A DNA stretch of 30,598 bases from a virus (taxonomy: Duplodnaviria; Caudoviricetes): positions 1-30,598 of IMG/VR virus record IMGVR_UViG_3300033067_000698. One strand, 5' to 3'. The notes below the pieces were generated by a model. That model had not been told where the DNA came from and searched no databases. It saw only the letters and a program-made list of their open reading frames with translations. The first letter of the stretch is position 1. The number at the start of each line of letters is the position of its first letter. Shown one piece after another: positions 7,692 to 26,730 of this stretch. The position numbers were made by a program, and so were the translations under genes.

Positions 7692-7767
7692 TGGTGGGGC
7701 CACTCGGATTCGAACCAAGATATGACGTCTTATGAGGACGCGGCATTAACCATTATGCTATAACCCC
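7692..7767 (-). tRNA. tRNA with CAU anticodon (Ile2/lysidine-type or elongator Met)
   Basis: GGGGTTA...TGGCCCC-A-CCA acceptor, D loop TAATGGTTA, anticodon arm GCGTC-CTCATAA-GACGT, T loop TTCGAAT; 76 nt. Not an initiator (1:72 paired, no GGG/CCC in the anticodon stem). Confidence 0.93.
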
Positions 7768-8419: not shown

Positions 8420-9094
8420 TTATACTCCTTGTTTAAAAGCTTTCATTACTTCATACATAATAATTGAAGCAGCGGATGCCACATTTAGAGAACGCATTAC
8501 ACCAAGTTGTGGAATGCTGACAACATGCTCAATTTTTGACAAAATATCATCAGGAATACCTGTTCCTTCTTGCCCCATAATGAAACAAGGCTTTAGACCA
8601 AAATAACAGCCACGATTAGGATATTTTACTGGTTCAATACAAGTTAAATAATCACCATTACTTCTGGTAGATACACCAATTTTATTCAAAAAATCATCAA
8701 TATCTTCACCACCAGTTTCAACGGCAATTGGTAGATATTTATTATCTTCCATAATTTTGAAAAAAGCATCTGCATCAATAGTTGTTTCATCAACCATTGC
8801 AGAATACTTTTCAATAGTTACATAATTTTGGGCACCAACTGCACCACGACGATCAAAATTCTTTCTACCAATGAGAAGAACCTTTTCGGCTCCAAACATG
8901 GCAGCAGAACGAATAATGCCAGATACATTAAGATCACCAGTAATGTTAAGTGCTGCAACAGCATAAGGAAGGCGAGACTTGGCTACAATTTCGTCCAATT
9001 CTTCCTTAGTCATATGCTTAAATTCTTCCCTCACATTGAAGGTATTCCTTTCAGCATTTTCCTTAATCATATCAGAATAATTAATAGTAGTCAT
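8420..9094 (-). CDS. SpoU/TrmH-family (SPOUT) RNA 2'-O-methyltransferase
   Basis: Motif 1 NVSGIIRSAAMFG, motif 2 IMGQEGTGI, motif 3 IPQLGVMRSLNVASAASIIMYE. Confidence 0.92.
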   Translation of the reverse strand: MTTINYSDMIKENAERNTFNVREEFKHMTKEELDEIVAKSRLPYAVAALNITGDLNVSGIIRSAAMFGAEKVLLIGRKNFDRRGAVGAQNYVTIEKYSAMVDETTIDADAFFKIMEDNKYLPIAVETGGEDIDDFLNKIGVSTRSNGDYLTCIEPVKYPNRGCYFGLKPCFIMGQEGTGIPDDILSKIEHVVSIPQLGVMRSLNVASAASIIMYEVMKAFKQGV

Positions 9095-9428: not shown

Positions 9429-9519
9429 TGGTAGGAGTGCAAGGATTCGAACCTTGTGGAAAACGGTAATCAGCCGCTAAAGTGTTATAAGCACTTCCCC
9501 TGTGCCAACAGCCACTCCC
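9429..9519 (-). tRNA. atypical tRNA-Ile(UAU)-like RNA with a second GAU anticodon-like hairpin
   Basis: GGGAGTG/CACTCCT-A-CCA acceptor; CAAGG-TTCGAAT-CCTTG T arm; mini D arm CTGT-TGGC-ACAG; AAGTG-CTTATAA-CACTT; AGCGG-CTGATTA-CCGTT; 91 nt. Confidence 0.8.
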
Positions 9520-9970: not shown

Positions 9971-10051
9971 TGGACCCCTAGACAGGATTCGAACCTGCAT
10001 TTTCAATCCAGTTACGGGTTAGAGGGTAGAAGCCACTGCCGTTACTAGGGG
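9971..10051 (-). ncRNA. tRNA-like RNA (Arg UCU-type loop), rearranged arm order, copy B
   Basis: CCCCTAG/CTAGGGG-T-CCA acceptor; GCAGG-TTCGAAT-CCTGT T arm; TA then ACGG..AGTGG-CTTCTAC-CCTCT..CCGT; then AACTGGATTGA. Confidence 0.8.
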
Positions 10052-10446
10052 ATATCATTCTTTTGTTTTCTTGAAGCAACACCTTTTAAAGCGGCTTCTT
10101 TATTCATACGTTTATATTCTTCTAATCCATATTTTTCAATAGTTCTTTCTTTAAGACTTTTAAAATTTGGATTAAAAAACTCATAATCTTTTCTATTATC
10201 AGAATCAGTGCCCCAATATAAATGATATGGATTAGAGCATTTAGGATTATTACACCCATGGCACACTAATATTCTGCATTTCTGATTTTTTGAATGAGGT
10301 ATAGTTGTTTTCAATGTATGTGCTAATAATCCTCTGAATATTCTTGAATCACCGCCTATTTCTATACATTTTTCATTTAGTTTAAGATGCGATCTTCGTT
10401 CTTCTCTAGATTTTGTCATCCATTCTGATATGTCTATAAATTCCAT
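10045..10446 (-). CDS. HNH-type (His-Cys/HNH_3-like) putative homing endonuclease
   Basis: VCHGCNNPKCSNPYHLYWGTDSDNRKD. Free-standing between two tRNA-like genes. Confidence 0.85.
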   Translation of the reverse strand: MEFIDISEWMTKSREERRSHLKLNEKCIEIGGDSRIFRGLLAHTLKTTIPHSKNQKCRILVCHGCNNPKCSNPYHLYWGTDSDNRKDYEFFNPNFKSLKERTIEKYGLEEYKRMNKEAALKGVASRKQKNDIP

Positions 10447-10463
10447 TTTATTATCTTAAAATT

Positions 10464-10542
10464 TGGCGCCCTTGGCAGGAGTCGAACCCGCATCAATCCA
10501 GTTATGCACCAGTCGCTTAGAAGGCGCGGCCAATACAAGGGC
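10464..10542 (-). ncRNA. tRNA-like RNA (Arg UCU-type loop), rearranged arm order, copy A
   Basis: GCCCTTG/CAAGGGC-G-CCA acceptor; GCGGG-TTCGACT-CCTGC T arm; TA then TTGG..CGC-CTTCTAA-GCG..CTGG; then AACTGGATTGA. Confidence 0.8.
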
Positions 10543-10552
10543 TGATTTCGTC

Positions 10553-10580
10553 ACTATACACTATTGATTGAGGCTGTCAA
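10553..10580 (-). promoter_or_regulatory. sigma70 promoter for the tRNA-like RNA cluster
   Basis: TTGACA-N16-TATAGT, about 10 nt upstream of the RNA 5' end. Confidence 0.7.
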
Positions 10581-13296: not shown

Positions 13297-13321
13297 AATT
13301 AAGTTCCTTTTTTAAAAACAA

Positions 13322-13727
13322 AACAACTTTTCTGTTGCTAGGCAAGTTGACAGCCCCGAAAACATGGTTCTTACCTAAGAGCCCTTAAAGGGAATTAGGC
13401 AGCTAGCGCCATATCTCCATAGTTTGCATTATCGTTTGCATCTATGTTTATTTATGCTTTTACGCAGTCATCTACGGATAACTCAATGTTTTTTATCTAT
13501 TGCCAATCGATCCTAGGTCAACCCCATCAGGAACAATTATATTACCAAATTTCTTGGACTATTTTCTAGAATATCGTCCAATACTTTCCCTCATTATCTA
13601 TCAGGCTTGCGCTCGCCGTCATCTAGATTGCTGCTACCTACATGGTAGGATATAATTGCTCTTGGTGGAGTTGGCGGGAGTTGCACCCGCGTCTTGCCAA
13701 TTTTAATAACATGTCAACGTTATCAGT
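13322..13727 (-). ncRNA. ssrA: permuted (two-piece) tmRNA, alphaproteobacterial type; tag (A)ANDNANYGDMALAA
   Basis: Acceptor piece ends GCGGG-TGCAACT-CCCGC-CAACTCC-A-CCA (CCA at 13663-13665). Coding piece starts GGGGTTG at 13525 (G3:U70). Tag ORF at 13395-13439; GCAACAGAA near the 3' end. Outer ends are approximate. Confidence 0.93.
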
Positions 13728-13731
13728 CTCT

Positions 13732-13762
13732 TATTTATAGCATAGTCAGAGTCAGTTGTCAA
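13732..13762 (-). promoter_or_regulatory. overlapping early (sigma70) and late promoter for tmRNA
   Basis: TTGACA-N17-TATAAA, where the -10 is part of TATAAATA. Confidence 0.8.
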
Positions 13763-14064
13763 GATATCTTTTTTACTGATAATACTGCCATTGCTTCATG
13801 TAATGCATATGGTGAAAATGCACAGGGAGAATGCTGATTAGATGTAATATAAGTAATCTCATAATACATATCTCTGCCAGTGTATTCTTTAGTTGTTGGA
13901 TTATATTCTCTTACCCAACAAATATCACCAACTTTATAATCACGATCCATAACCCTTAAATCGTGGGTTTTTGAACCATCAAAAAGAGGTTGAAATAATC
14001 CTACCCACGATTTCAATTCATGTTTATATTCTTGCATATTAACTCCAAATTTAACAAATGACAT
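13759..14064 (-). CDS. DUF3850 / ASCH (PUA-like) domain protein
   Basis: HELKSW..LFQPLFDGSKTHDLR..DRDYKVGD...REY......YTGR.....ITYIT. True start may be MQEYKH. Confidence 0.82.
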   Translation of the reverse strand: MSFVKFGVNMQEYKHELKSWVGLFQPLFDGSKTHDLRVMDRDYKVGDICWVREYNPTTKEYTGRDMYYEITYITSNQHSPCAFSPYALHEAMAVLSVKKIS

Positions 14065-25836: not shown

Positions 25837-26730
25837 TTAACGGGTTGGTTGTGGTGAGTTTTGTAATTGTGGAATTTGAATAAATGGTGTGGAACCACTA
25901 CCCAAAACTTGGGGCAAAATGCCATTCCATCTTTGAACAGCCTCGAATTGGAGGATTTCAGGGTTTGCCCTTAGTGCCCTACCTTTGGCTTCGATGGCCT
26001 TTGCTTCGGCTTCTGATTGGAGCCTAGCAACCTCTGCCGCGCCGGTGGCAACTGCTACAGCCTTTGCAGCCTCTGCCCTTGCCTGTGCTACTTCATTTTC
26101 ACGTTGCATAGCACGTTGAGTTGCAGCATTCTTTTCATCAATAGATGTTCTAATTGCTTCAGGAACTCTTACTTCTGAAATCATAGCAATAACCACAATT
26201 TCAATACCTAGAGATTTTAATTCTTCTTTTACTCGATTTTCAACCCTTTGTAGAAGATCATTTTTACCACGACCATAAATTTCATCTACAGGCATTTTTG
26301 AACCTTCTTGAACCAAAGCGTCTCTAACAGTGTTATAAATTGGACCTCGATTAATACCTTCGATACCTAGTCTATAACGTTGGAATAGAGTAGTTACTAG
26401 TTCTTCTTTAATTACATATCTAACGCTAACGTCAACACTTAGATTCATACCTTCTACAGATTGAAATCTAACAGCTTCATCATTTGGTGAAGAAGCGCGT
26501 CGATCAGCAGTAAATTCAACGTTATTTTCGAATAGAGGGAATGTATATAGTTCTTCATTCCACCATAGCCAATAACGACCGGGACTTAAAACTTGGTTTT
26601 GAACGCCACGATCAGAACCATATAGATTTACTTTAACACCAACATTACCAGCAGGAACCTTGGAACATGCCGCCATTGTTAGAGCCATAAAACATAGTAG
26701 AAGAAACTTTTTCATTATATATCCTTTCAA
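25837..26730 (-). CDS. SPFH/band 7 (prohibitin) lipoprotein
   Basis: Lipobox-like MAAC, VPAGNVGVKVNLYG, Ala-rich coiled coil, WNGILP. Likely start is MKKFLL. Confidence 0.9.
   Translation of the reverse strand: MKGYIMKKFLLLCFMALTMAACSKVPAGNVGVKVNLYGSDRGVQNQVLSPGRYWLWWNEELYTFPLFENNVEFTADRRASSPNDEAVRFQSVEGMNLSVDVSVRYVIKEELVTTLFQRYRLGIEGINRGPIYNTVRDALVQEGSKMPVDEIYGRGKNDLLQRVENRVKEELKSLGIEIVVIAMISEVRVPEAIRTSIDEKNAATQRAMQRENEVAQARAEAAKAVAVATGAAEVARLQSEAEAKAIEAKGRALRANPEILQFEAVQRWNGILPQVLGSGSTPFIQIPQLQNSPQPTR

Follow-up and report, generated by a model that had tools for sequence, protein, structure and literature searches.

Two tRNA-like genes flanking an HNH endonuclease gene

The window, that is, the whole stretch of DNA analysed here, is a virus record of 30.6 kb with T4-like genes (encoding a single-strand binding protein, a helicase loader, and PhoH), and nearly all of its genes are carried on the minus strand. 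Two tRNA-Arg(UCU)-like genes lie on this strand, copy A at positions 10464–10542 (79 nt, with G73) and copy B at positions 9971–10051 (81 nt, with C1-G72, U73, and C38). Both hold a 7-bp acceptor stem, U8-A9, a 5-bp T stem, a TTCGA loop, and an encoded CCA, just as a first-pass annotation made from the sequence had described them. The same annotation had noted that the stems of the two copies differ yet still pair, and this is borne out by the acceptor stems, which are separated by two compensated changes (G1-C72 in copy A versus C1-G72 in copy B, and U6-A67 versus A6-U67).

The two genes, hereafter called re-threaded, depart from canonical tRNAs in the order of their parts. The loop bearing UCU begins at nt 20 in both copies, with the anticodon at nt 22 versus nt 34 in a canonical tRNA, and the interval from A9 to the anticodon arm contains no hairpin. 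This loop had been placed on an extended stem; the loop is present, but the stem is imperfect, with three of its five anticodon-stem pairs formed in copy A and four of five, together with a U·U opposition, in copy B. A D-loop-like segment follows the anticodon arm, at 10493–10504 (minus strand) in copy A, where the equivalents of U13 A14 A15 C U G18 G19 A20 can be read, and at 10003–10014 (minus strand) in copy B. As reported from the outset, the copies share the sequence of this segment, TAACTGGATTGA, which the window contains at exactly two places, one in each copy, versus a chance expectation of 0.28 when up to one mismatch is allowed.

Between both copies lies a free-standing HNH endonuclease gene (10045–10446, minus strand; 133 aa; PHROG HNH/endonuclease, E 2.7e-7), whose product matches PF05551 below the cut-off, and whose last codons and TAG stop overlap the first seven bases of copy B, which form its 5′ acceptor strand. 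On the other side, a predicted sigma-70-type promoter (10553–10580, minus strand; TTGACA-16-TATAGT, matching 11 of 12 positions) ends 10 nt upstream of copy A. The site that had been taken for a dedicated promoter is therefore where it was said to be, although it is a consensus match only, and 59 matches of this type are found in 7.5 kb, versus about 40 by chance. AGA accounts for 171 of the 347 Arg codons in the 57 ORFs of the window, and the lack of a canonical tRNA-Arg(UCU) gene in the window proves nothing, because the contig is a fragment.

Other RNA-related genes are found on the same strand. An ordinary tRNA with a CAU anticodon, either Met or lysidine-type Ile, is located at 7692–7767, and a permuted tmRNA of the alphaproteobacterial type, which hints at the host group, at 13304–13766 (tag ANDNANYGDMALAA). 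About 0.9 kb downstream of the two copies, a SpoU-family RNA 2′-O-methyltransferase gene (8420–9094; PF00588, 76 bits) encodes a protein with weak matches to RlmB, TrmH, and TrmL, which could modify tRNA. A UAU tRNA at 9429–9519 exhibits a 7/5 branch, a D arm with a tetraloop, an anticodon stem of 6 bp, and a long variable arm with GAU in its loop. Similar long-arm UAU tRNAs with a GAU-bearing variable segment occur at L004, L006, L007, L065, L498, L265, and other loci, several of them close to a re-threaded tRNA-Arg, and a term search of the supplement of Mukai (PMC5389517) for three of their motifs returned none.

A family with a rebuilt D stem

Standard tRNA finders miss these genes, as had been anticipated. 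A default ARAGORN run called neither copy A nor copy B, and ARAGORN called 0 of the 110 members of the family described below; the Rfam tRNA model (RF00005) scored copy B at 27.3 bits, below its cut-off of 29, and gave no match for copy A, while some other members score 29–41 bits. IMG/VR was scanned with four patterns for homologues with the same arm order and, with four annotated phage regions added, 373 loci were obtained, a set that represents a sample and gives lower bounds. The fetched loci were parsed with the acceptor stem, the T arm, a U33 loop at nt 20–26 closed by three pairs, and an A(A/G)..GG motif as anchors, and free of any requirement on the tested helix, the anticodon, or position 20. 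At least 110 distinct member sequences were parsed in this way, whereas the U·U pair of copy B kept it from passing the strict parse. A covariance model built from 69 sequences, copies A and B among them, scored members at 48–90 bits and ordinary tRNAs at about 40 bits or less; copies A and B, being in the training set, reached 78.4 and 73.6 bits, respectively.

Members are present in seven cultured phages. Those of Felix O1 (25951–26032), Klebsiella KB57, Rhizobium RHph_I1_18, Pseudomonas M1, and Vibrio 1.170.O (MG592537, with a CCU member) lie outside the training set, and those of Streptomyces phage Enygma and of Slicko01 were part of it. In existing annotations, members are left blank or mislabelled, like the one in Slicko01 (tRNA-Ser). 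Up to four members occur in one record. T4, PAK_P3, and Sf14 hold none, and the plasmids searched with copy A gave no match. Among four sequencing runs, all made up of contigs, the two that might derive from RNA yielded nothing beyond short or divergent pieces, which is evidence neither for nor against expression. BLAST matches to phages (861 and 429 records) include many short partial ones and were not taken as member counts. Among cellular genomes in GTDB, 120 pattern loci were found and 100 were scored, of which five contain members (six genes, in MAG or draft contigs, one to two per genome), four of them in tRNA arrays and one as a pair with no ARAGORN tRNA nearby; these 100 loci gave no sign of a housekeeping cellular gene. 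In the isolate genome of Bradyrhizobium sp. C9, a tRNA array of a 480-kb scaffold includes a re-threaded tRNA-Arg(ACG) (L500, 1501–1579, minus strand). Streptomyces phage Enygma holds UCU, CCU, and GAU members, and re-threaded genes of the Ile type (GAU, UAU, CAU) stand in tandem in L288 (385–641, plus strand), L355 (162–362, minus strand), and L517.

In this family, the chain runs from the acceptor strand through U8 and A9 to the equivalents of canonical residues 22–26, the anticodon arm, and a linker of 3–5 nt, and continues with the equivalents of residues 10–13, the D loop (A14 A15 ... G18 G19 A20 ... A), U48, the T arm, the acceptor strand, and CCA. The first-pass annotation had described these RNAs as lacking a D arm, and no hairpin indeed precedes the anticodon arm; a D-stem equivalent nevertheless exists, formed by nt 11 and 12 with bases that immediately precede the D-loop-like segment and lie two and three positions ahead of the AA..GG motif. 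Nt 11 is paired in 110 of 110 members and nt 12 in 109, with all four Watson–Crick types represented (C-G, G-C, A-U, and U-A). The MI values of both positions (1.52 and 1.28) compare with shuffle maxima of 0.17 and 0.19, and slid registers pair in 40–89 of 220 cases versus 219 of 220 in the true register. The outer positions are loose, with nt 10 paired in 22 of 110 members (U·U in 84) and nt 13 in 48 of 110, so that two of the four pairs are constant. In the model-fitted alignment, which leans to the model, 94% of the rebuilt-D-stem cells pair and two-sided changes are observed in 19 of 20 pairs; RNAalifold, run on a MAFFT alignment, predicts the acceptor, anticodon, and T stems only, and not the rebuilt D stem.

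A further sign of a tRNA core comes from position 15·48, formed by the second base of the displaced segment and the base before the T stem. Of 117 sequences, 114 show A·U here and 3, from three different records, show G·C, with no mismatch. Such covariation is as expected of the R15-Y48 Levitt pair (PMC9976931). All members also share a 7-nt loop with U33, a purine at 37, and a 7/5 acceptor–T branch, although only the purine was free of the parse criteria. Judged from these sequences, the D stem is re-threaded and not lost, with the D-stem 3′ strand and anticodon arm preceding the D-stem 5′ strand and D loop. The earlier term "arm-swapped" is thus right about the changed order, but the exchange concerns two sequence blocks and splits the D arm, instead of moving whole arms. 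The simplest reading of its origin would be that two neighbouring blocks of an ordinary tRNA gene changed places, with 22–45 put before 10–21, a reading supported by the match between the displaced segment and the D loop of the ordinary phage tRNA-Arg genes in the same loci (most commonly AACTGGATA). Residues 9 and 22, 45 and 10, and 21 and 48 lie close together in the tRNA L shape. Where canonical tRNAs have the links 9→10, 21→22, and 45-47→48, the family has 9→22, linker→10, and, at the third, D loop→48, and links rejoined in this manner turn the four-way cloverleaf junction into a three-way one, with the D loop as a junction strand.

Pseudogene decay or a chance arrangement would be in line with the single-sequence folding energies, which are no better than those of shuffles (z of -0.3 and -0.6 for copies A and B), and with Rfam tRNA scores at or below the cut-off. 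However, the existence of 110 distinct members in phages of many hosts, with compensatory changes in 19 of 20 pairs, refutes this explanation because of the covariation across the family, and its probability is considered negligible.

A different matter is whether copy A or copy B, within a functional family, is a decaying leftover of the movement of an HNH cassette, which would be compatible with the main reading and which is regarded as unlikely, albeit worth keeping in mind. Both copies are weaker than the average member, copy A for its anticodon stem (only 4 of 110 members have three of five pairs) and copy B for its U·U, C1-G72, and U73; moreover, the body of copy B has as its nearest relative a member with an ACG anticodon (L001), these same-anticodon genes flank an HNH gene whose stop falls in copy B, and HNH genes adjoin members in Felix O1 and Slicko01 too. 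Against decay, both copies keep perfect acceptor stems, CCA, A20, and A15·U48, and the irregular stem of copy A recurs in L065, L130, and L286 and therefore represents a subtype, in which the rebuilt D stem is extended in an alternative way. The three viral relatives of the window HNH gene are located near ordinary tRNAs and not near members, which also leaves the idea of this HNH protein as a dedicated partner unsupported. The second copy was probably brought or left by the mobile HNH cassette.

Identity elements and the ordinary isoacceptor

The anticodons of the 110 members are restricted to two amino acids, with 93 Arg anticodons (ACG 42, UCU 31, UCG 11, CCU 8, and GCG 1), 17 of the Ile type (GAU 10, UAU 6, and CAU 1, the latter of which could be Met), and no others. 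In bacteria, Arg identity depends on A20, C35, U/G36, and A/G/U73, and Ile identity on A73, U12-A23, and U20 (PMC9976931, Table 1). Equivalents of the Arg determinants are present in copy A (G73) and copy B (U73), with A20 placed by analogy. Throughout the family, A20 is found in 93 of 93 Arg members, a proportion that was partly selected because GGA was a requirement in three of the four viral patterns; the single scan free of this bias gave A20 in 17 of 17 Arg versus 2 of 16 Ile members. Canonical phage tRNA-Arg genes from the same loci hold A20 in 39 of 44 cases, versus 17 of 252 in other tRNAs. Ile-type members show U20 in 15 of 17 and A73 in 17 of 17, and the U12-A23 equivalent is found in 7 of 10 GAU members versus 9 of 93 Arg members. 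Ile and Arg members, however, represent one split on the tree (built from short columns, trait columns included), and the A20/U20/A73 contrast may therefore be a single event, with inflated Fisher p-values. Arg anticodon labels switch 9, 13, and 15 times on the tree and always stay Arg, and this repeated change within the Arg set appears to be the stronger point, outweighing the Ile/Arg base contrast as evidence.

The presence of the ordinary isoacceptor was assessed in 50 larger whole records out of 60 chosen, the 10 smaller contigs being left out; 101 loci held members. Canonical UCU and ACG genes were sought by an exact canonical-spacing pattern, which can miss deviant canonical tRNAs, and 34 matches were checked with ARAGORN, with the removal of five CUA-type genes, one half gene, and two non-tRNA sequences. 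According to these hand tallies, in which records are related, often incomplete, and hence not independent, a canonical UCU gene accompanies the re-threaded one in 1 of 29 records, versus 13 of 21 records that have a canonical UCU gene among those lacking the re-threaded form (p 6e-6), and a canonical ACG gene in 0 of 13 records with a re-threaded ACG gene versus 12 of 37 without one (p 0.02). The figures for records with at least 15 tRNAs are 1 of 18 versus 12 of 18 for UCU and 0 of 12 versus 10 of 24 for ACG. Record G027 holds both re-threaded and canonical forms.

An example of the proposed replacement is Felix O1, whose tRNA cluster comprises 25 ARAGORN tRNAs, none of them Arg(UCU), and where the re-threaded UCU gene lies between Ile(GAU) and Ser(UGA), in the position taken by a canonical Arg(UCU) gene in Sf14. 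A tRNA for the frequent AGA codon was expected in the Felix O1 genome, yet not found (PMC3185647), and this "missing" tRNA is probably the re-threaded gene. In L532 (G012:C1:125200-125460), an intact re-threaded UCU gene is followed, about 70 nt on, by a canonical tRNA-Arg(UCU) of which the 3′ half is present, an arrangement that looks like a scar of replacement. Apparent CUA (amber) tRNAs were also observed in 5 of the 50 records (L524, L526, L531, L542, and L543), with four cta calls and one ambiguous call by ARAGORN.

These data also bear on whether the RNAs translate at all. They might instead be mimics that fold, and are perhaps charged, but act as decoys for host tRNA nucleases or as ligands occupying ArgRS/IleRS or a sensor, an explanation that we regard as improbable. 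A mimic would also retain synthetase determinants, some irregular tRNA1 species are charged yet unused in translation (Mukai 2017, PMC5389517), and both the imperfect anticodon stems of copies A and B and the accumulation of several members (up to four) in some records would fit this role. Nevertheless, a decoy need not exclude the canonical isoacceptor, whereas exclusion is seen anticodon by anticodon; the Felix O1 member occupies the slot of a canonical gene; and the 7-nt loop with U33 and purine 37, as well as the 7/5 branch, are retained throughout. Between the two roles that the first-pass annotation had offered, decoder or decoy, the decoder is favoured.

Proposed function and comparison with known RNAs

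As far as sequence comparison can tell, copies A and B are probably processed, arginylated, and used to decode AGA in place of an ordinary tRNA-Arg(UCU). The core of canonical tRNAs is held by tertiary contacts such as U8·A14, G18·U55, and G19-C56. In the re-threaded RNAs, the D loop is expected to dock on the T loop via G18/G19, and on U8 and U48, so that a normal L shape is likely to be reached and A20 would be shown to ArgRS together with C35 and U/G36; the host ArgRS would then likely charge these RNAs with arginine, and AGA would likely be read. The proposal of a rewired tRNA that keeps its D/T elbow gains support from the rebuilt D stem, the 15·48 covariation, and the conservation of A14, G18, G19, and A20, as well as from the restriction of the anticodons to Arg and Ile and the exclusion of the canonical isoacceptor. 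With less confidence, re-threading may persist by removing features of shape or sequence on which the tRNA-cutting defences of the host rely; an escape of phage tRNAs from such defences has been proposed, with colicin D named among them, in a paper whose abstract and passages offer nothing on re-threaded RNAs (PMC10264068). The wider suggestion that these genes form a widespread working class of phage Arg/Ile tRNAs, which attains the L shape by another chain path, with a three-way junction and the D loop placed behind the anticodon arm, and replaces the ordinary isoacceptor in order to escape tRNA-cutting immunity that recognises the core or the D arm, is a tentative one, plausible but not the likelier outcome.

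If natural tRNAs keep their contact bases and determinants on another path of the chain, synthetases, EF-Tu, and the ribosome read shape and not connectivity. Members lie unannotated in cultured phages such as Felix O1, Enygma, KB57, and RHph_I1_18, and are thus directly testable. Phage tRNA inventories change when re-threaded genes are counted, and these genes provide a means of asking whether tRNAs serve phages for codon supply or for nuclease escape, as well as a natural scaffold for orthogonal tRNAs.

To our knowledge, one arm order is taken to hold for every cloverleaf except those of mitochondria, in which arms are lost and not re-threaded. No Rfam family matched the copies as a re-threaded type, and searches of the open-access literature (CC-licensed PMC papers and bioRxiv) gave no description of a re-threaded tRNA. 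The tRNA variant with a re-threaded core is real and conserved, and apparently undescribed so far.

The RNAs against which novelty was to be checked (T4 RNA C/D, T5 RNAs, YrlA, allo-tRNAs, and Rfam families) do not match this type. YrlA and tmRNA build a tRNA-like elbow on a different chain path, and T4 RNA C/D and the T5 RNAs resemble the family as stable RNAs encoded in phage tRNA clusters. Unlike YrlA, the tRNA-like domain of tmRNA, T4 RNA C/D, and T5 RNA1/2/3/X, however, the family keeps both an anticodon loop and a CCA end. YrlA (RF02553, gathering score 69 bits) gave no match over copies A and B, or over members in 13 loci. T4 gave no match to the family model at E 1e-6, with RNA C at 16.7 bits and RNA D not among the matches listed, and the best score in T5 was 35.3 bits, versus 48–90 for members. 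The 5′-end element of T5 RNAX, which is similar by BLAST, was rejected as a member, since it scores 35 bits like ordinary tRNAs and has no Arg loop and no CCA. This element (NC_005859, 41429–41503; L128, 15430–15504, minus strand) combines a D-arm-like 5′ half with a family-like 3′ half, is annotated as "tRNA-OTHER" in KookSpook, and is possibly a hybrid or a relic.

Allo-tRNAs and the E-loop tRNA1 species (Mukai, PMC5389517) are likewise non-canonical tRNAs from phages or metagenomes, some of them with UCU/CCU or UAU anticodons. They are described there as 8/4 or 9/3 tRNAs whose D hairpin precedes the anticodon arm, allo-tRNAs also having a long V arm, whereas the copies are 7/5 and have neither a long V arm nor a tRNA-Sec-like D stem with a tetraloop. 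A term search of the supplement of the same paper for four family motifs returned none.

Closer in secondary structure are the D-armless mitochondrial tRNA-Ser(AGY/UCU) of type III, in which the D hairpin is also missing and an extended anticodon helix directly follows the acceptor stem; in the account given in PMC7609411, they have no D stem, and their connector contacts both the variable loop and the T loop. Re-threaded RNAs might accordingly be merely D-armless, their anticodon stem being extended, their variable loop long and unstructured, and elbow contacts missing, as a secondary structure without a D hairpin, an extra helix of 2–4 bp stacked on the anticodon stem, and the three helices predicted by RNAalifold would suggest. 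Set against that account, this explanation is very unlikely, as an unstructured loop does not explain the near-invariant AA..GG, an A20 that tracks Arg anticodons, and a perfect 15·48 covariation. In contrast to type III tRNA-Ser, which have no D stem, serine identity, and an organellar origin, the family keeps a full D loop with GG and A20, moved 3′ of the anticodon arm, and exhibits a canonical T loop, Arg/Ile identity, and a bacteriophage origin.

The closest likeness is to canonical tRNA-Arg(UCU) (RF00005), exemplified by Shigella phage Sf14 (15811–15887) and T4 tRNA-Arg, with which the family shares the 7/5 branch, U8 A9, the 7-nt UCU loop, the T loop, CCA, the D-loop sequence AACUGGA with A20, R15·Y48, and, in Felix O1 and Sf14, the gene slot. 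Copies A and B hold the acceptor and T stems, T loop, and CCA of RF00005, but not its D hairpin (10–25) on the 5′ side of the anticodon arm; instead, their anticodon arm lies between the two strands of the D stem, and the D loop is located 3′ of it.
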